The notes beneath the pieces are model-generated. The model did not search any database. It had not been told where the DNA came from and worked only from the letters and a program-made list of their open reading frames with translations. From Ophelia neglecta (taxonomy: Eukaryota): a stretch of DNA of 64,000 nucleotides. The stretch is taken from assembly GCA_965285935.1 (NCBI GenBank), contig OZ260664.1:11594001-11658000 (forward strand), read 5' to 3'. Position numbers and translations under genes: made by a program. Shown one piece after another: positions 26,101 to 38,184 of the stretch (position 1 is its first letter; every line of letters begins with the position of its first letter).

Positions 26101-27149
26101 ACTTCTATGTAATCTATGTTGTAACCTTTGTGAACGTCACTCATGATTATCGTGGCAAAGAATGGGTTAATCCGGCATGACCCTTTCGTATGGCTATGGT
26201 AATGTCCTGCTTTATCCTAGACCTTTGTAAAGCATAAATCAGAGTTATTTTCAATATGTCTGCATGAAGCTAGTTATTGTGACTCCTCAAATATGCTTGG
26301 ACAAAATAATTTCAATGAAGCGCCCGCTACGTTTTGGGGTCTAGTATATACGACATTTACCATAAAATCATGTAGATGTAAAAAAACAAACAACGTTTGT
26401 TGGCAGTTTCTTGTGCCATGATTATAAAGATATAGCGGCAATAGGTATCAACGTGTGTTTATGATTTAAGCGGAATATTTTCACAGTTAGGCTTATGTAA
26501 AATTTTGATTATTATAGTTGATCTGTTTTTGTCAGGTGGCTCATTGTTTAACCGATGACTGCCCACATGGTCTCACACATAGAGCTGTATGCGATTACAG
26601 AGAGTTCTTGTCTCGGTCTCTTCGTCAAAGACGCATGTTAGTTCTTAACTGTTCCATTTGTTGGTCGATATGTGCAGTCAACCGCCAGCAGGTGCTACCT
26701 TTAATAGATTCTACTGCTAAGACCAGTCTAATCATTTAAAAGAGGTGTAGTTCAAAACTTTACATCAGGAATTAATGGTCACATTTGTATTATACCCGAT
26801 GGGTACACCCACTATGTTTAAGGCAAATTATTACTGGTACTTACATTTTCTGTCCTGACTGGCAGGCCGTTAGCCCTCTAGCGACAGTTCGTCGAAGGTA
26901 TTGTTATGATCGTACTTACGGTAATTGTAATGCATACCATACTACTAACACAATATCAATCCTGATCCGCAGGGCAGTTGCCTCTTCATATACCCCCTAA
27001 ATTGTAACTGGCCGTCTTCGCACACCCTACAACGCGGTGGTAGCAGAGGGTCTTCATGGCCACATCGTGGCGTGTCATATACCCCTTCTGTGATGTAGAA
27101 ATAAAAACACCCTCCACTACCTTGTTTTCTACATATGGAAATAATATTC

Positions 27150-27544
27150 TTTGTCGACTTCTTTCGCCTCTAGCCACATCATTCATCTCCAATTTAACTT
27201 AATTATACAGTGAAACCTGCCTTAAAGACCACCTGTCTAATCAGACCATATATTTTAGGAACAGAACACTGACTTTCCATTGATTTTGACCTGTCTATTC
27301 AAACCACCTGCCTATAAAGACCACAATTTGTCAGTCCTTTGGGTGGTCTTAATACCCAGGTTTCACTGTAATTAAAATAATTGAGTTGACTAGCAAGTGG
27401 GGTGCACAAATAATAAAAACCTGTATTTATTACCGAAATACAATCAAAATCGAAATTACTCCTGATACTATGATAATTATTAATGTTTATCACTGACTAG
27501 CCAAATTCGACTTATCGTCATGGGGAGGCGCCCGATAGGACCCC
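27150..27544 (-). repeat. Split direct repeat B2 (395 bp), 3' terminus of the element
   Basis: TTTGTCGACTTC...GATAGGACCCC, a copy of 29022-29416. Confidence 0.95.
27208..27368. mobile_element. 161-bp Tc1/mariner(pogo)-type MITE inside repeat B2
   Basis: TIR CAGTGAAACCTG...CAGGTTTCACTG with TA on both sides; internal GACCACC subrepeats. Confidence 0.85.
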
Positions 27545-27860
27545 TCTCAGCTGACTTCATTTAAACTTTATATTTTATATCAACGAAAATTACTCCTTGT
27601 TATCACTAGAATCAGATACTGATAGTCTGAACATCATGTAAGAACTTCCTCCTGTTCTACCAATCTTCTCTTCCCCTTCCAATGAGTCACCTGCAACTGA
27701 CTTGATCATCATGTAATTTATAACATCTGGCATAACTTTAAATAAATCCAGCACCCCTCCCTCACTTTTACATATTGTTACTACTATAACCTCCTCTTAT
27801 CTATGACACACTCCTTAAAAAGCCTAATCATCACATCTTACTTTACCCTATAGAGGTACA

Positions 27861-28329
27861 TTCTTGCTCAATATTAACTATACATGGTTCAGCCTCCAGG
27901 CCACACCCTTCAGCCTCACTCCTTATAATGCTTCTAGCTCAAGATTAACTATACATGGTTCAGCCTCCAGGCCACCCAAGAGGTAACACCCTTCAGCCTC
28001 ACCCCTTATAATGCTTCTTGCTCAAGATTAACTGTACATGGTTCAGCCTCCAGGCCACCCAAGAGGTAACACCCTTCAGCCTCACTCCTTATAATGCTTC
28101 TTGCTCAAGATTAACTATACATGGTTCAGCCTCCAGGCCACCCAAGAGGTAACACCCTTCAGCCTCACTCCTTATAATGCTTCTTGCTCAAGATTAACTA
28201 TACATGGTTCAGCCTCCAGGCCACCCAAGAGGTAACACCCTTCAGCCTCACTCCTTATAATGCTTCTTGCTCAAAATCAACTAAACATAGTTCAGCCTTC
28301 CAGGCCACCCAAGAGGTAACACCCTTCAG
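27861..28329. repeat. 83-bp tandem array (about 5.6 units) in the A2-B2 spacer
   Basis: Units start at 27861 (12-bp deletion), 27932, 28015, 28098, 28181 and 28264: TTCTTGCTCAAGATTAACTATACATGGTTCAGCCTCCAGGCCACCCAAGAGGTAACACCCTTCAGCCTCACTCCTTATAATGC. Confidence 0.95.
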
Positions 28330-28730
28330 ACCCTATTTAGGCTAGTACTCCATTTACATTATACTATTGCTCCAATTGCATACTATGCATGCTCATTTAA
28401 GTTTCCAGGTCACTCAACAGTTAAGTCCTGTCTTACTACCCAACTTTCTGGGTCCCATGTTATCACAATCAATCTCAAATGATTCTTCAGATCCCCCAAG
28501 GTGTAACACCCTTCCAATTTTCTTAACCTTACTGGCACCTATGATGTAATATTGCCTAGGCCTTTCTATTTCTACAAAAGTTATCAGTCCAGGCCAAGGG
28601 GGTAATTACCCTTCCAGTCAAACTATGGAGCCCTAGCAGTGCCAATGTGCAGCCTGGCCTTAAAACACCAGACTAACTAATAATTAACACTACTTCTACC
28701 CCTCACCTCATATGGGTGGCTGTGGGTGGG

Positions 28731-29024
28731 AAAGCTGTCTGTCTAGCTTTCCTGCTGCCTGCTAAATCAAAGATGGCTACACGTGCTACGTCCTCGATCA
28801 CCTGATGTGTGCCTGGCGCCCCCTGCCCATATACCATTTACTGTCAAGTCACGTACGCCATACCCAACTAGTCCCAGCAGTAGTATAGCAATAGCCATGG
28901 AAAATAATGCATACTGCTAGCGAAGTAGTATTGCCACAGGCAAAAACATAGTACTCCCTAAATACAAGGAGGCCCGAGTCGAAAGGTGACAAAACATGTT
29001 ATCGCCTTGCGATAAAATATATTT
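28731..29024 (-). repeat. Split direct repeat A2 (294 bp), abutting B1
   Basis: Copy of 35463-35756; shares TTT (29022-29024) with B1. Confidence 0.95.
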
Positions 29025-29416
29025 GTCGACTTCTTTCGCCTCTAGCCACATCATTCATCTCCAATTTAACTTAATTATACAGTGAAACCTGCCTTAAAGA
29101 CCACCTGTCTAATCAGACCATATATTTTAGGAACAGAACACTGACTTTCCATTGATTTTGACCTGTCTATTCAAACCACCTGCCTATAAAGACCACAATT
29201 TTTCAGTCCTTTGGGTGGTCTTAATACCCAGGTTTCACTGTAATTAAAATAATTGAGCTGACTAGCAAGTGGGGTGCACAAATAATAAAAACCTGTATTT
29301 ATTACCGAAATACAATCAAAATCGAAATTACTCCTGATACTATGATAATTATTAATGTTTATCACTGACTAGCCAAATTCGACTTATCGTCATGGGGAGG
29401 CGCCCGATAGGACCCC
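29022..29416 (-). repeat. Split direct repeat B1 (395 bp)
   Basis: Matches 27150-27544 with two substitutions seen (29202/27330 and 29258/27386). Confidence 0.95.
29080..29240. mobile_element. Same 161-bp MITE inside repeat B1
   Basis: Same TIRs and TA flanks as 27208-27368. Confidence 0.85.
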
Positions 29417-29764
29417 CACAAGAGGTCCCACATGAAAGGAGCAGCCAAACTGCAGCCCGAATGTGGGGCCTCGCGCCCCCCATGCGACAGCGATAATATA
29501 AATATCTGAAATCCTGATAGTATTATTCCCCAAATTTGCTAACAGGCATCTCTGTAGCGAATCAAGATAAAGTGGCCTGCCTAAATCTAAGCAGAATGGC
29601 TGTAGACCCCTTCCCGTTTACAGTATCTAATGCTTGGTAACCCATGTTGCACACCCCACTCACCACCGGTATCTGTCTAGTAGTATCTCAGCCCATTATT
29701 ATCTTTGAACCAACCTTAATCACACAATATTTCCCATGTGCCACACTGTGATATTAAATGATGT

Positions 29765-30739
29765 TCACTGATTTATTAAAACATCTGGCCTAATGTAATT
29801 CAAAAAAGCATAGGACTTCCATCTCCCCATAAGCCTGATTTGCTCCTGGGAACTGCCATTCATAGCCATCTGAGTTGCCCTACCTAGCCTAAATGAATGT
29901 GTATTAAAGCAATCTGAGTCCAGTCCTAATTGACAAATGCACCTTTTCAAAACATTGACCACCTGGTTCCTGGAGAGGGCATGTGATTCCAGGTTCTTTT
30001 TAAACAGTGGACCTGCTTCCTCCCCTCTTAACTGCATGTATTGCCCTAAAGCTTGTACTGGGCAATAAGAACCTTTCACTTCTTTCACTTTTATCTTTGG
30101 GGTAAACCCTTGGCTATGCTTATATTTCTCAAAATTAATAATGTAAGCATTGACCCTACCATCAGGCGACCAAGACCAGCTTAATTGTTTCAACTGCAGT
30201 GTATTTGTCTCATTGCCAGCAGTGACAGCTTCCCCAACCCTGAGACAACCATAAAACAAGGTTAGAAAAAGGGCCCTATATAGGACCTGTTCATCCCTGG
30301 GCAACCCTATGTAGCTAAGTTGAGCTAACACCTTTTGTAATAATGTTAAGGTTATTGGCAACAAATGTTTCTGCCCCTGAGCACAACGTTTAACTCCTGC
30401 CATTAGTTTGGCAACCACAAAGGATGAGGTTATATCTGGTAGCCTCCATAACCTATGGTAAAAAGCTATAGCTGACAAATGTGTGGAGATTGTGGCATAT
30501 TTCCTGCCAAGTGTAAACAAATGACAAATAAATGCACTTAACACTGTGACCATATCAGTCTGCTGGTATGGGACCATAGAAGATGTTTGTACGAAATTCA
30601 TATAAGATTGCCAGTGCTTAGCATATTGTCTAAAAGAGGCTTCTTCCATTGAGGCAAGGATCAGTCTGCTCCCCACAGATTGAAGTTTTCGGGCCGAAGA
30701 TGATAAGGCACTGAAGTTGATCGCGGTTGCAATCCCCAA
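29765..30739 (-). CDS. Tyrosine recombinase (YR), open frame intact, overlapping the RNase H end
   Basis: Catalytic signature LRVGE ... KH ... HSFRLGRAT ... GRWKS ... LNYIR. First ATG at 30649; the ORF-track start is TTG. Confidence 0.95.
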   Translation of the reverse strand: MGIATAINFSALSSSARKLQSVGSRLILASMEEASFRQYAKHWQSYMNFVQTSSMVPYQQTDMVTVLSAFICHLFTLGRKYATISTHLSAIAFYHRLWRLPDITSSFVVAKLMAGVKRCAQGQKHLLPITLTLLQKVLAQLSYIGLPRDEQVLYRALFLTLFYGCLRVGEAVTAGNETNTLQLKQLSWSWSPDGRVNAYIINFEKYKHSQGFTPKIKVKEVKGSYCPVQALGQYMQLRGEEAGPLFKKNLESHALSRNQVVNVLKRCICQLGLDSDCFNTHSFRLGRATQMAMNGSSQEQIRLMGRWKSYAFLNYIRPDVLINQ

Positions 30740-32422
30740 GCTTGTAGGTTGTGTGCTGACACCTTCTGTCGAGAAATAAGATCACAAGTTATGTTCTTTG
30801 TACCAGGCAAATGTTCTGCCCTAATAAAGATGTTATGTTTCAATTGTACCAAAACCATTCACCTGATTAATGTCATGATATGTCTAATAGGGGAGGTCTG
30901 TTTATTCAATGCAAACACTACCCCTAAATTGTCACAATGGAAGGTAATGTGGCAGTTTGCCAACTCCTGTGCAAACATATTGAGAAGTACAAAAATTGGA
31001 AACAATTCTAGAATTGCTATGTCTAGCTCTCTCCAGTTGACAGGCCATAGGCCGTGAATCCAATTAGTACCAAATGTGCCTCCATAACCAGATTTAGAGG
31101 AATCAGTATACAGATTGATATTCTGTTGATCAAACATGTCTGCCCATAACATCATTGTTACCCCATTGTACTCTTTGAGGAAGTGTTCCCACATTTCAAG
31201 ATCCATTCTCATAGCCCTGTCCACCTTTACCTTATGCCAAGCAAGTTCTTTTCCCACTAATGGCATTGTACAACCTTCTTAAGAAAGGACGGCCCGGTCT
31301 AACTACTATGGAAGCAAATGCCAGACAACCAATGGCTGACCTTAATTCTCTGCCTGTGACCACCTCTTGTCTTTGAATTTGTGCTATTTTCTCCCTGTAT
31401 GCCTTTATCTTGTCTACTGGCAGCCTAGTTATCATTTGTACTGAATCAAGTTCTAACCCAAGGGAAACCATTACCAGTGCAGGCCCTACAGTTTTCTCCT
31501 CTGCTATGGGGACACCTACCTCCATACACAATGCTTTGAAATCCTGCAGATATTTATGACAAATGTTGTATTCCTTATTGAGAAACATGAAATCATCCAA
31601 AACCTTCACCACAAATTCCACCCCGAATTGAGTTCTCATAATCCATTTCAAGGCATCCGAAAATGCCTCAAAAATTTTACACGAAGCTGAACACCCCATT
31701 TGTAAACAGCGATCATAATAATATAAATTCTTCCAGGTGAACCCAAAAAGATGATACTGTGAGGGGTGCACCGGAATGATGCGAAAAGCATGTGCTAAAT
31801 CTGTTTTAGCCATAAAAACACGAGGCCCTTGCCCTCTTATTATTTTGATGGCATCCTCAATGCTTTGATACTTTACTGTGGCTGACTCCCTGGGGATGTT
31901 AGTATTAACTGCTGCTTCATTGTAAGGGTATGAAAGATTGTGCAGCAATCTATACTGCCCTGGAGTGGACTTCTCCCTAATGGCAAGAGGTGTGCATTTA
32001 AAATTGTCTAGTGGTGGTTTATTAAAGGGGCCCGCTATTCTTCCAGCCTGCAGCTCTTTGGACAAATTTGCCTCCACTGCCTCTGGGTTCATCAGAGCAG
32101 ATCTAGCATTATTACACGACAGAGACGTATCTTCCCCTACAAATGGGATCTTAAAGCCCTCCGAAAACCCTTTCACTAACGGATCCCTGAGCCTGGCAGG
32201 GTATTTGCTTAAGTACTTAACTAAGTTGTTAATGTTTACTGGGGTTGTCAGTTTTGTAGCCGGGGCACTCGCAGTCTCTGTGCTTCCCTGAACATATGTA
32301 GCAGTCATGTCTCCAGCGGCACTTTGGGTCATTGCACTTTCCTTGGAGGTGATAGGCCCTGCAGAAACCATATGGCGGTACCTGTATACTGGCTGCCTCC
32401 CCCTGATCTTGTCCCCTTTCAA
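30661..32422 (-). pseudogene. pol (reverse transcriptase + RNase H), disrupted
   Basis: RT motifs KTDLAHAFRIIP, CLQMGCSASCKIF, VLDDF, LGLELDS. Frameshift near 31250. RNase H motifs LYTDSS, ILELFPI, HCDN, HLPG-N-CDLISR. In-frame TGA at 30859-30861. Confidence 0.9.
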
Positions 32423-33457
32423 AGCTGCTTTTGGGACGAAAACTATTAGCTCCCCTGCTACAGTTTGCCCTCAATGATAACTTAAATGACAGGTCTGGTC
32501 TGGTATGATCCCAGGGATACCACACGGTAGCTCTACCAGCCCTGAACTCCCCGTCATACCATGCCTAATCTGCTCCCCACTCTGCCAATTCCCGTACCTT
32601 GTTAGCGTGAACCAGCAATGCTTTACATTCCAGTGGAAATTTCTCACTGTATATCTGGGAAAATATGTCAAATGCCCTGCTCCATTGTAAAATATTCAAG
32701 TCTTTAAATTGCTTTCTCTGTAGCTTCAACCTAGGCTCGTCCCCATCTAAATCAATCCTCAGGGCCCCCTTTTTCCAATCTGCTTCTTTATGCTGCCCCA
32801 ATAAATCTCCCAATTCTACAAATTGGTGTTGCCAAATTTTTTGTTTTAACTTCATAGGTACACTAGCCCCTAGTGGAATGTCGTATAAATCTTTAGCTTG
32901 ATTGTCACATGAAGCTATAGCTGGACTATCGTACGGAGCTCTAGCTGACCTCTGAGGAACTACCTGTATCTGCTCTCCTTTGTGCTGTGTAAAATTTACC
33001 TCCTGTTCAGAGAACATGGATGTACAAATCTCAGCATTAGAGCCACCTATGGTAGCTGTGTCAAATGGCTTCTCCCCTAGTATATCTGGGCCCCCTGGGG
33101 TTGTATTACCTGAACCCTGCTTCTGTTGACTGGTTCCTGTGGTGACCTTTGTGGTATTCTCTGTATTGTTATTGACTGGTATGTGTCTATAATTGTTGTC
33201 CCTGAAGTGCTGGCTGCACCACTGAGAATCACTGATGTCAATAATTCCAGTTTCTTTTCTAGTCCTGACATCCTTTCCTCCATCCCGGAATTAGGAAGCT
33301 CTACTTCGTGTCCCACCCTATTCTGTTTTTCTCCTATATTGCCACTTGCCTCCCCCTCACCCCTTTTTCTTGTTAGTCTCCCTTGCGCTTTGCTTTTCTC
33401 AGGAAGTACTGGAACTTGATCCATGTTATCCCTTGCCCGTTTCTTTCCCCTAGGCAT
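32229..33457 (-). pseudogene. gag-like ORF1, disrupted
   Basis: ATG at 33457 (MPRGKKRARD). One frameshift lies between about 33290 and 33080, joining the 32565-33017 frame. An in-frame TAG at 32565-32567 falls in D*AWYDGEFR (the W-x-x-YD-x-x-FR motif of DIRS/Ngaro gag). C-terminal Cys/His knuckle CRAYHLQGKCNDPKCRWRHDCYICSGKH. Confidence 0.85.
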
Positions 33458-33543
33458 GATGTCCTCTGAAAAATATTTCTGCCAAAAAAACACAAATTAA
33501 ACTCGCAACATTGTAAACTGTTCCCTTTATATAATTCAAATTA

Positions 33544-33710
33544 CAGTGAAACTTGTATATTAATACTTTCCAAGGAACTGTCAAATGATGGTTTATATGG
33601 GCAGGTGGTCAGAAAACCAATGGAAAGATTGGTATTCTGCTTCTAAAAGGGGTGTTCTGATTTTACCAGTGTTTTGTTTCGAGAGGTGGTCTTCCAGACA
33701 AGTTTCACTG
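33544..33710. mobile_element. 167-bp diverged MITE of the same family, opposite orientation, upstream of gag
   Basis: TIR CAGTGAAACTTGT...ACAAGTTTCACTG with TA flanks; the reverse complement aligns with the B-repeat MITE (AAGACCACCT, CTTTCCATTG, ACCACCTGCC). Confidence 0.8.
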
Positions 33711-33793
33711 TATTAATTTGGCAAGCAGTTCTATTGTTTCCCACAGTTTTGGACGCAGCGAACAAGCAAAGCGACGCCAACAAAAGGTACATT

Positions 33794-34060
33794 TAGCCAC
33801 TTACAATGCCGGCCGCAGCGAGCCTCTTCACACGGTACTATAGCCACTTACGGTGAAGCCGCGCGAACCGCCTCTACCTGGTTCTATAGCCACTTACAGT
33901 AAAGGCCGCGCGAACCGCCATTACCCGGTTCTATAGCTACTTACAGTAAAGGCCGCGCGAACCGCCTAATACCTGTTCTATAGCCACTTACAGTATAGGC
34001 CGCGCGAACTGCCCAATACCTGGTTCTATAGCCACTTACAGTAAAGGGCCGCGCGAACTC
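33794..34060. repeat. 46-48-bp tandem array (about 5.7 units) between the SGNH ORF and gag
   Basis: Units start at 33794, 33841, 33887, 33934, 33981 and 34029: TAGCCACTTACAGTAAAGGCCGCGCGAACCGCC...GTTCTA. Confidence 0.92.
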
Positions 34061-34690
34061 CAAACCGCATTAGAAACAACCGAAGCCACTAGATTTTTGC
34101 CTTTCATTAGTCGAAACTTGTATTTAATGGCACAAATTATTATGCCACCCTGAGTATTTTCCCCCGAGAGACATTAACAGCACCTTAAAATCAAGCATAT
34201 AACGTAGTCTTGAAACTCATCAACTCCAAAATTCATTTGGACCTCCCATACCGTGCACCAGAAAACTACACCCTGCCTAATCCCTCTATGTACTATAATT
34301 TTCTGCCCACATGCATGCATGTATTTGTCAGTCCTGGCCACCCAAGGGGTAACACCAGCTAACCCTGTCTAACCTATCCACATAACCCCCTGTGCTATTA
34401 CATTTGTTTATGTGCATGTAAGGGGTGGGGGGGGGGGGGCATCTATCGCTGTTTTTGTGCAGCAGGCTTACTACTAATATGAAAAGAATGTCTCTGTTTC
34501 CTTCATTTTAGGTTATAATTATCTATTACATAAATATTACATAAAATTGCTTATTTCGAAAAGTCGATATTCAACCATGTATATCATGCACAAATCAACA
34601 AATTTGGAATGGCGATATTTTGATATGTAGTATATCAATGACCCTCCTACCGTCCCCCTCCTCCACCCCTAGCCCTACATATATCTGTCC

Positions 34691-35371
34691 CTAATCCCTA
34701 CTTGACTGTGCTTTCCCGATCAGTTTAAAACTTGCCCTTCTAATTGATCGTACATAGCTTTCCCTTCCCTCTTTCTTGTTTGGGTGGATCCCATCCCAAG
34801 ACCATTGTTCCACATCCATGGTTTTGCCCTTGTTATTCTCCCAAAACCCCTCGTGTGTCCAATACATAATCTTGTCATTATCCTCTGCCATTGTTCTTAA
34901 TATTCTATTAAAATGCCCCACCTTTTCCCTAAACTGCTGTGCTGACATAGCTCCTAGGCCCCCCTCCCTCCACAAACAACTGCAGACCATGGCCTGGCTA
35001 GCGCCCTCCTCCAGGCACCATTCGGCCAGCCCTATCACTGCCCCTGCCGCCTGCAATGGCGATATGCTAAGTGAAGTGAGGTCATTTGTCCCAATATCTA
35101 ACAAAATAATGCACCCTTTTTGCAACCCCCTCGCGATTACCCTGCGCGCATGTATGCCAAAATGTCCAACAACCTTTAGACCCGGCTGGGCGGCAAAAGT
35201 AAGGCGATCCAATTTTCCAGACATTCTCAAATGGTCTATCACCCCACCATTGTCTCCCCCAGTGCCTATGACCTTGTCTGCTGGGGACTGGAACTTGCCT
35301 ATTCTACCCCATATGTGTTGTTCCATCCCGGTTATGAAACTGTGCCCACCGATAACTAAATGTTCCTTCAT
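34691..35371 (-). CDS. SGNH/GDSL-type hydrolase (esterase), 226 aa, intact, retrotransposon-encoded
   Basis: Block I VIGGHSF (nucleophile Ser), block III LDIGTNDL, block V WDGIHPN (DxxH). ATG start with no interruptions. Confidence 0.9.
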   Translation of the reverse strand: MKEHLVIGGHSFITGMEQHIWGRIGKFQSPADKVIGTGGDNGGVIDHLRMSGKLDRLTFAAQPGLKVVGHFGIHARRVIARGLQKGCIILLDIGTNDLTSLSISPLQAAGAVIGLAEWCLEEGASQAMVCSCLWREGGLGAMSAQQFREKVGHFNRILRTMAEDNDKIMYWTHEGFWENNKGKTMDVEQWSWDGIHPNKKEGRESYVRSIRRASFKLIGKAQSSRD

Positions 35372-35462
35372 GTTAAGGTAGCGTATCTTGGCTATATAAT
35401 CACCCTTTAGGAACTATAAAACCGCCTTTACCTTGTAGTTATTGCTTCAAACCCCGTGAACT

Positions 35463-35756
35463 AAAGCTGTCTGTCTAGCTTTCCTGCTGCCTGCTAAATC
35501 AAAGATGGCTACACGTGCTACGTCCTCGATCACCTGATGTGTGCCTGGCGCCCCCTGCCCATATACCATTTACTGTCAAGTCACGTACGCCATACCCAAC
35601 TAGTCCCAGCAGTAGTATAGCAATAGCCATGGAAAATAATGCATACTGCTAGCGAAGTAGTATTGCCACAGGCAAAAACATAGTACTCCCTAAATACAAG
35701 GAGGCCCGAGTCGAAAGGTGACAAAACATGTTATCGCCTTGCGATAAAATATATTT
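35463..35756 (-). repeat. Split direct repeat A1 (294 bp), 5' terminus of the element
   Basis: Identical by eye to 28731-29024 (AAAGCTGTCTGTCTAGC...GCGATAAAATATATTT). Confidence 0.95.
35500..35590 (-). promoter_or_regulatory. Candidate Pol II promoter within repeat A (duplicated in A2)
   Basis: Minus-strand TATA-like GTATATGG (35566) about 28 nt before Inr-like TCAG (35537); E-box CACGTG 35512-35517; YY1-like AAGATGGC 35502-35509. Motif inspection only. Confidence 0.4.
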
Positions 35757-38184
35757 ATTTTCAATGAAAATCACATTATAGTAAAAAAAGAACTATAAAC
35801 TATACACCTATTTATCCAAGACCGGCATGCCTAAAGCACTATTGTACACAGTTCGGCAAATTTAGAAAGGGGAGATTTGAGGCAAGAACGGTAATGAAGC
35901 TTTTCAGCTGTAAATCTATCTAGTGGATGAAAGTGTTTTCCTTCGACTTAGATTAGACGAGTATTAATACAATGTTATATCTATCAACACTTTATTGTGA
36001 ACGAATATTAGCTTTGATGAAAGTACTAATAAATGTATTTTTGTTTATCATCAAACAAATTTTACTTGAAGGGAAGGGCATTATAATGGATCATCTTCTG
36101 ATAAGATTGATTCCCGCTGATATTTAATATCTTCCGTCGGAACATACACGCATAAGATTTTTCGAAGATTCTTATTCCATTAATTTTACCATCGATTATC
36201 AGTATCTGATTATTGTTATATATCCGGCGGCAGAAGTTGAACATTTGGATAAGTAGGCAAAGCACAACAGTTGCTTTCAAAAAGTGCCACTTATCTGACG
36301 TTAATATACATTAATGTTATGTCGAGCGTAGCTCGAGGTGTGCCAAGCTGCACCATGATGGGCCGCGGGTCGTCGCATCACAGTGAACGAGGTCCAGAGC
36401 GCTTTACCAGTTAGGCATATAATCGTGTTAAGATGTTGAGAAAATGTGTAGCCATATGTTTTGTTTCTGGGACGTATATTAGATGTCTATTGATTATCGT
36501 GTAGCATATAAGCCTCGCTGGAAATTCGCATTGACTGTATGAATGTAGCCCAAAAAAAACCACAATAATTAATTTCCGTAGAACGGAGTTTAAAGATACA
36601 AATTAGATGGCACTTGGGCAATTATTTCCTGCGGCGACTGAATTTATTATGAAGTCAGCATGCTTAAAAGCCGCATGCTTAGTAGGATGTATTGCAGATG
36701 TTGACTATATCTACTCATTAGTTGGGCAGAGCTACTACTGTGGCTGAAGAATATAGCTAGTATGTTGAGGGCCTAGCGGCCTTTGGAACCGTGTATGTCA
36801 CCATGGACCATATGTTTGCTTTGAATTTTCTCTTCGAACATAACAAATCAGCAAAAAAGAATTATTCTATTTAAGCCGTGTGATCACCACCTGTGGCTAT
36901 ACATTTTCGAGGTGCTAGCTTAAATCAGTCTTTGTGTCTAGTTACAAAAAAAGGTGTTATCTAGTTATGGTAGGCCTTTTGTTTAATTACTTTCATGTTT
37001 TGTTGCACTTCAAATTTTTTTATCGACAACTGTTACAATCATTTGTCATGGTTCAGCCACTCCTTCCCGGATATCGCTAACGAATGCCTGACGGAAAGAA
37101 ACCCTGCAAGAAAAAAGTATCCGGTGGTAATAGTCATCTCGTTTGCAGCTTCTTTTTCTCGTGTATTCAAAAAAGTTCCGACATGGATATTTCTGCTGTT
37201 TTATAAGCAGAAATTTGGGCTGCTCGAGGGAAGCCTATCTATCGTGAGTGCTGTGACTATTATGCATTTACATGGATAAGCCAAGTCAGCTGAAGAAAAA
37301 TGCCAATAACCCTTCACTGTTCTTTTAACACGACAAAATATATTTTGCATGACTGCTTATAGCATAATACCCATCTGGCTGATTCCAAACTCACGAAGAA
37401 CTGTTAAATAATTTTATCCCAAAATAGATGTTAAGTTGTGTCATTTTTTTTCAACATCTTATGACAAATTGATCAAAACCGACCCTCACTGTTGAAGAAT
37501 CTGAAGATCGCAAGGAAAGGCTAGCACGCGCACCTTAATCCAAGTCTGATATATTTTTTGTTTTAGCTTTCCTGAATTTTTAAACAGCATACCATAATTG
37601 GATATTTTAATGTTCCTTTTGCGTAATTTTTAAGAATAACTTCCCATGCCTTCATGTTTTTCACTTGTTACTCATTGTACTCTGGTATTGTACACAACTT
37701 AAATTCATTAGAATAGAAGGTCAAACGATTATTTGGTGGGCGGCTTCTCCTCGCCAGTGAGCTATAAATATGTTCTATATTGGTTTAGAACCGTCGGGTT
37801 GTAATTGTGCATATAAACATAAGGGTTTTATGAGCTAGCAGGTTCTAGCTAGAGAGATAGAAGCTACCCTTTGCGCCCACTGGCAGAATTAAAAAGATTC
37901 AGTTGTCTAGCTATGGGTAAATTTAAACGTTTGATGGATATATTTTTATGTTAATTTTCTTTGTCTGCCGGGCCATTCTCGTTTTGTTCAGATACCTAAA
38001 ACTCTCGAACAAATATGTCGGACAAAAGGCAAGAAAGTCTAAGGAATAATTTACTGCCCAACAGGTATAAGAAACTTGCTATTACCGACAACATAGTGAT
38101 GTGGTTGTGTCAATTTAAGGCAGAGTGGGAAAAGTGGTGTGTTAATCAACATTTACCACATAAGTTCAAAGAAAATTGAAAATA

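Follow-up and report, generated by a model that had tools for sequence, protein, structure and literature searches.

Retrotransposons of the Ngaro type carry a tyrosine recombinase (YR) and are defined by the order of their split direct repeats and by the absence of a methyltransferase, as set out in the accessible parts of PMC4157794 and PMC9210276. Two Ngaro-like YR retrotransposons of Xenopus, DIRS-53_XT and DIRS-54_XT, also carry an SGNH hydrolase (main text of PMC9210276).

Here we describe an element in a 64,000-nt stretch of Ophelia neglecta DNA (contig OZ260664.1), referred to below as the window, to which all coordinates refer. The element occupies positions 27147–35759 of the minus strand, as judged from its repeats, ORFs and Pfam matches, and on repeat order and domains it is assigned to the Ngaro elements, a known kind. 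All features lie on the minus strand, except where no strand was assigned to a repeat array or insert.

Results

Organization of the element

Read along the minus strand, the element consists of A1, the SGNH hydrolase gene, a leader, gag, RT/RNase H (RT/RH), YR, B1, A2, a spacer and B2. The split direct repeats thus have the order A1...B1-A2-B2, with the internal repeats downstream of YR, and gag, RT/RH and YR share one orientation. A1 (35463–35756) and A2 (28731–29024) are identical at all 294 positions, and B1 (29022–29416) and B2 (27150–27544), which have AATAAA at 29303 and 27431, respectively, differ at 2 of 395 bases. The triplet AAA is common to the junctions of the left flank with A1, of B1 with A2 and of B2 with the right flank; its presence at both host junctions and between B1 and A2 would be expected for recombinase integration.

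The SGNH/GDSL hydrolase ORF upstream of gag (34691–35371; PF00657, E 2.5e-5) is open, as is the YR ORF (29765–30781), whose R, K, H-x-x-R and Y positions align with those of relatives. The gag-like gene (32229–33457; PF10650, E 1.3e-4) is broken in this copy by one frame change and one stop, and the RT/RH gene (30707–32281, ends approximate; PF00078, E 5e-8) by stops and a frame change. Although these two genes are broken, the element is young, because its repeats are almost identical. Gag has a C-terminal CCCH finger, which is followed by a Cys/His knuckle-like motif read from the translation. No Pfam match to a methyltransferase domain was found in any of the seven ORF pieces scanned, which stop short of the last 150 bp of RH, past its stop.

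A high-copy host MITE has been captured inside B1 (29077–29242) and has a twin in B2 (about 27205–27370). Because both B repeats contain it and it also occurs in contigs of the family, it is copied along with the repeat at each cycle. The leader contains a second, MITE-like insert (33531–33718), about 67% like the MITE in B and in the opposite orientation, and a 47-bp array of 5.6 copies detected by tandem-repeat search (33794–34058). A C-rich tract is found in the leader (34422–34439), about 65 nt upstream of the core copy described below, and another lies directly after A2 (28714–28730). Among the relatives, C-rich tracts that immediately follow A2, or lie just ahead of B2 if the spacer is short, were seen at L085:6186, L060:3531, L041:7025, L002:6644 and L087:5035, the last in an element whose repeats were not resolved.

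The spacer and its 83-bp array

The non-coding spacer between A2 and B2 (27545–28730) is 1186 bp long, as originally predicted, with B2 ending at 27544 and A2 starting at 28731. It has no stop-to-stop ORF of at least 70 aa, which agrees with the earlier statement that it holds no credible ORF. In the distal part of the spacer, a run of slightly fewer than 70 codons without a stop (27590–27795) is probably due to chance. Derivation of the spacer from a decayed coding or SGNH segment was considered and rejected, given the lack of such an ORF and a blastn match to the leader of at most 25 nt.

The predicted series of about 5.6 units of 83 bp was recovered as a tandem array of 469 bp (27861–28329), for which TRF reported 5.1 copies at 97%. 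An exact 21-nt core is present in five array units (27970, 28053, 28136, 28219 and 28303), and the last unit lacks 12 nt of the core middle, a loss located between short direct repeats. Degenerate cores had been noticed near 28495 and 28590; the first lies at 28490–28510 with five mismatches and the second, gapped and without 3 nt of the 3' arm, at 28584–28614. To these we add a third, with six mismatches, at 28408–28428. The recurrence of the core downstream of the SGNH gene was likewise found where it had been placed, in the 5' leader at 34336–34356, with one mismatch; none of 100 shuffles reached six matches. A bulged hairpin of some 14 bp could be formed by this leader copy, which resembles the array cores more than the three old neighbouring copies in the spacer do. 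Leader and array are thus identical at 20 of 21 core positions over a distance of 6 kb, and their 40-nt flanks are not significantly similar (46–447 of 500 shuffles score as well). Retention of the core between leader and spacer without its flanks suggests either selection or a short conversion event. Rfam 15 (4227 models) gave no matches at E up to 1 in 26500–37000, and an exact search of metagenome contigs with a 29-nt core found none.

The distribution of the spacer in the family was judged from the contigs of a single sample (three runs), which may be the source sample, compared over 28247–35462; contig depth is here a rough measure and not a copy number. The proximal spacer had depths of 77/201/238 and YR of 98/245/225. 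Depths of A were 195/466, B reached 462 in one run, and the array unit had 239/585/783. The depth of the array unit is about three times that of the spacer, versus more than 1000 times for the bin with the MITE inside B, whose depth is above 100,000. The junction of A2 and spacer is spanned by one contig. These observations suggest that the spacer travels with the element and is present in most family copies, rather than being an insertion, and that the array is confined to the element. The unit occurs nowhere in the 64-kb window outside the element and its depth pattern fits the element only, which speaks against a generic genomic minisatellite, the finding that by the original prediction's own account would have counted against it. 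At the 28490 copy the sample contigs match the core at one more base, with U-A and G.U in the outer stem where the array has U.G and G-C. A form with a 2059-nt deletion (joint 31231–33291), without most of gag and RT, was seen in two of the three runs at depths of 35 and 59 and is likely a non-autonomous derivative.

Predicted folding of the core

The core had been proposed to fold as an RNA hairpin. For the bare 21-mer the 7-bp fold is obtained (−6.5 and −8.2 kcal/mol); in short context it does not stand out from shuffles (z +0.29 for an array copy and −1.06 for the 5' copy). In long context the pair probabilities are at most about 0.25 for the 5' copy, below 0.1 in four of the five array copies, where competing folds win, and 0.74 in one. 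In the nine window copies taken together, 84% of cells are paired and there is one two-sided change, a result reached by 54–122 of 500 shuffles. The lower pair 32-52 is invariant, and pairing at 31-53 is maintained by G.U, A-U or U-A. A half-swap test gave p values of 0.08 and 0.21, with few independent copies. Covariation, which had been named as the check on the hairpin, is consequently not significant for these few independent copies, and it was found in distant relatives for motifs of their own. Hairpin structure for the window core is only suggestive.

Hairpin arrays in related elements

Relatives were collected by an RT profile search, which yielded 80 metagenome loci and 10 genome-bin loci of 33–53% identity, forming 65 clusters including the window. 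These loci are probably host DNA in the respective assemblies. Loci L081–L090 are Ngaro elements in contigs of bacterial genome bins, several of them named as marine symbionts, and there they probably represent host contamination of the bins. No relatives were found among viral contigs. The window motif is shared by none of the 90 related loci, and no DNA match to the spacer in them was better than E 0.01 (22 nt).

Many relatives have a short motif of their own repeated after YR, at a spacing of roughly 60–130 nt, and a 12-mer is repeated at least four times in 18 of the 40 clusters whose sequence extends 350 nt or more beyond YR. When halves of the motifs in those clusters were swapped, the own halves gave −1153 kcal/mol versus −960 ± 24 for swapped ones (0/5000). 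The antisense strand gave a smaller effect, −794 versus −666 kcal/mol (0/5000), and since it also passes, the motifs may have a role as single-stranded DNA; the coding control gave 1002/5000 (42 of 53 regions tested). When flanks alone were considered in a hand-picked set of 16 families, 39 of 61 copies paired best with their own flank. The 66 aligned copies contain 135 two-sided changes versus 58 ± 7, for a structure that was defined after inspecting those copies. G.U outnumbers A.C by 22:0 and 16:1 at two upper-stem pairs and is in excess at seven of the eight pairs counted, which indicates the sense strand.

Typically, a basal stem that varies is followed by a bulge and a short upper stem, often with an NNGG loop. 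The 3' motif was found in 26 of the 34 relative loci searched, always sense and after YR, and never in the 5' leader. Bulged hairpins after YR, in four to seven repeats with covarying basal stems, are present in L004, L007, L010, L016, L025, L038, L042, L058, L069, L070, L073, L077, L078, L082 and L088, and are better supported than the motif of the window. The original idea of a reiterated cis-acting hairpin therefore holds as a trait of distant Ngaro relatives, and for the window motif both fold and covariation are weak. Its placement near both ends of the genome RNA holds for this element and not for the relatives, since two-ended copies occur in none of the loci searched.

Compared with these post-YR arrays, the window copies also have a core of about 15–25 nt that is family-specific, repeated on the sense strand and surrounded by unlike flanks. 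They differ in lying after A2 and in the leader and not between YR and B1, where the arrays of the relatives precede B1 rather than follow A2. The nearest RT relatives (L001, L002, L012 and L018, in a tree made by a quick method from fetched loci only, covering 62 of 65 clusters) have neither the window motif nor a post-YR array. Two B copies are visible in four relatives, with a B-B distance, A2 included, of at most 460 nt in three; L085, with the only long spacer among these four (1258 nt), gave no common fold. RNAalifold found no consensus for the 66 3' copies or for 31 leader copies of the relatives, because registers and loops differ by family. A covariance model built from the relatives' 3' hairpins, R1, matched no core copy of the window and found no array in 19 held-out loci. 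R1 is weak, with 0.38 bits per position, and matches 1/4 of its L042 training copies. Its miss of the window motif says little about function, because the model is insensitive and R2 (see below) likewise misses a structure of the window. We nevertheless do not class the window motif with the post-YR arrays, given the miss by R1, the different position and the lack of arrays in the nearest RT relatives.

Leader motifs and position of the SGNH gene

In several families a different hairpin-like motif is repeated between SGNH and gag. When five families were picked by hand, pairing was seen in 116 of the 123 stem cells of their leader motifs, and six columns were two-sided. An unbiased half-swap test of leader motifs, on 22 of 31 regions, was not significant on the sense strand (1021/5000; antisense 74/5000). 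Directly after SGNH, L032 has a 31-bp array of 19.9 copies with a 6-bp hairpin, whose CCUUGUU loop resembles the CYCUUGG loop of the window. Other leader arrays after SGNH are of 82 bp in four copies (L003/L004) and 88 bp in 3.1 copies (L069). Tandem arrays of varied period (16–112 bp) upstream of gag were seen also in L001, L002, L032, L059, L076 and L086. In L027 a leader motif present three times (414–450, 1035–1071 and 1106–1142) includes GGTGAGT, similar to a splice donor, within a hairpin whose stems change. The window motif may belong with these leader motifs, the spacer being a counterpart of the leader, because in each a C-rich tract lies upstream of the motif.

An SGNH match is present in 20 of the 90 related loci. 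In 17, of invertebrate type, it is upstream of gag or RT (L002–L008, L014, L016, L017, L032, L043, L044, L052, L055, L076 and L078), and three are in contigs that are apparently circularly collapsed. An SGNH protein search gave no matches among 366 candidates. By eye, SGNH-like ORFs after YR were seen in L039, L051, L068, L085 and L089, four of them behind an acceptor-like site. An acceptor-like site precedes the gag start in 9 of 35 relatives, versus 336 of 3643 other ATGs (9%); such sites were noted in L012, L013, L046, L078, L082, L086 and L087. The window has a donor-like site at 35431, just after A1, and an acceptor-like site at 33466, before gag, with 6 of 12 pyrimidines, both below thresholds. 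The acceptor-like sites before gag hint at a leader intron, and gag may be made from spliced RNA that skips SGNH.

Predicted structure at the start of repeat B

A stable RNA structure is predicted to straddle the start of B1 (29385–29495; z −3.65 sense, −6.35 antisense). It is a longer, stable version of a two-stem structure with a conserved UGGC motif at the B1 start that covaries across 14 hand-picked relatives. The model of this structure, R2, when applied to 43 loci, gave 15 matches with E below 0.01, all of them on the sense strand and several from training clusters; it finds held-out families and does not match the window's own structure. Sites of the structure include L041:6541-6610, L085:5100-5200 and L060:2920-2975. 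Repeat B begins at TTGTG/G in the window and in L085, and at most 4 nt from that point in L060 and L041, but not in L002; in four of the five elements with two B copies the 5' boundary of B lies at, or at most 4 nt from, the UGGC motif. The structure may fix where second-strand synthesis begins or where end-copying stops. The primer of DIRS-1 is stated to be unknown in the accessible part of PMC7192593.

Discussion

We put at about one half the probability that the spacer core is an RNA stem-loop, bound by the zinc fingers of Gag, which marks full-length RNA for packaging and reverse transcription. This reading gains its likelihood from the distant relatives, which carry repeated tail hairpins with matched stem changes, so that the strongest evidence comes from them rather than from this copy. 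Gag is the candidate partner because it has a CCCH finger. The 83-bp array would be a local tandem expansion of a unit with the 21-nt core, tandem duplication would renew the reiterated stem-loops, and the putative binding of Gag zinc fingers to stem-loops formed in the cell would select full-length RNA. If the 5' core copy lies inside a leader intron whose removal skips SGNH, only unspliced RNA would carry that copy, as with retroviral psi.

It is rather unlikely, in our estimation, that the array is a functionless minisatellite, its unit amplified by slippage and the leader match of 21–25 nt left by a one-off template switch or gene conversion. The weak fold and non-significant covariation, the core centre lost in one unit between short direct repeats, the tandem arrays of many periods common in the leaders of relatives and the short B-B distance (at most 460 nt with A2) in three of the four relatives in which both B copies are visible would all agree with it. 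It fits poorly with the eight spacer copies of different ages that share the core, the older ones with unlike flanks, with the repeated motifs with covarying stems kept by relatives, and with the absence of any variant inside intact cores among the sample-contig rows listed. The core also holds what we take to be a CACCC box and a T-box-like half site, and it might act as double-stranded DNA, bound by host transcription factors in a promoter or enhancer downstream of each A repeat. Both core positions indeed follow an A repeat and a C-rich tract, and conservation without flanks and a weak RNA fold would be natural for a DNA site; nevertheless, we consider this unlikely, since a double-stranded site has no need of the complementary flank changes seen in relatives and all copies are in one orientation.

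Two further explanations concern the arrangement of the repeats. A2, spacer and B2 could be a separate transcription unit or SIRE-like mini-element, with an A2-driven non-coding RNA that is mobilised in trans or titrates Gag. A2 is identical to A1, B2 has AATAAA, a donor-like GAG/GTGAGG follows A2, and in VIPER it is the A2-B2 region to which SIRE corresponds (accessible part of PMC6681497). However, the depth of the spacer is not above that of the body, and A and B are at about twice the body, so there is no excess of free mini-elements in the sample, and such a unit is very unlikely. The shared core, of the same sequence and orientation near both ends, might also aid strand transfer by letting nascent cDNA jump between 5' leader and spacer. 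We regard this as highly improbable: homology is already available in the 294-nt A repeats, cDNA jumping at the core would lose or double A2/B1 or the genes, relatives are without two-ended copies, and no core joint is present among the joints listed in the sample contigs.

The Gag-bound stem-loop reading could be one case of a wider, undescribed RNA code, which we propose tentatively and with some doubt. Stem-loop arrays peculiar to each family, which tandem duplication renews and which can move between leader, post-YR tail and A2-B2 spacer, would be read by the Gag of each family to package its own RNA only, and the B-start structure would set the start of the second strand or the stop of end-copying; in the present element one motif would serve leader and spacer. 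The repeated hairpins and the B-start structure are concrete, mutable candidate signals for RNA selection and copy priming in YR retrotransposons, and family-specific pairs of hairpin and zinc finger could be a natural source of orthogonal RNA tags.

Retroviral psi consists of stem-loops bound by the zinc knuckles of nucleocapsid, clustered compactly near the 5' end. The present element may resemble it in its short stem-loops, whose loops contain G, in a Gag with zinc fingers and perhaps in a location within a leader intron. In contrast to the compact 5' cluster of psi, the candidate sites here are spaced every 80–110 nt and lie mostly in the 3' tail. TOC1 and kangaroo-1, algal elements of the PAT type, reportedly combine split direct repeats with an internal tandem array of about 75–90 bp, as this Ngaro element does; those arrays are not known to be linked with hairpins or with a motif that recurs elsewhere. 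In the openly accessible literature searched, neither repeated hairpins nor the B-start structure nor an SGNH gene ahead of gag is described; such repeats may be mentioned in the original account of Ngaro (Goodwin and Poulter 2004) or in subsequent reviews.

According to the accessible part of PMC6681497, VIPER/SIRE of trypanosomes has the same repeat order, and the A2-to-B2 segment resembles SIRE. SIRE, which is dispersed independently, has an internal part of about 30 bp, whereas the window spacer has 1186 bp and is not in excess. DIRS-53_XT and DIRS-54_XT are alike in the order A1...B1-A2-B2, in gag, RT/RH and YR, in the lack of a methyltransferase and in the extra SGNH ORF, judging from the main text of PMC9210276, in which the words 'tandem' and 'minisatellite' do not occur. 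In the amphibian elements of that text SGNH follows YR, whereas in the window element it precedes gag. The element of O. neglecta differs from them further in its 1186-bp spacer with a tandem array and in the MITE inside B.
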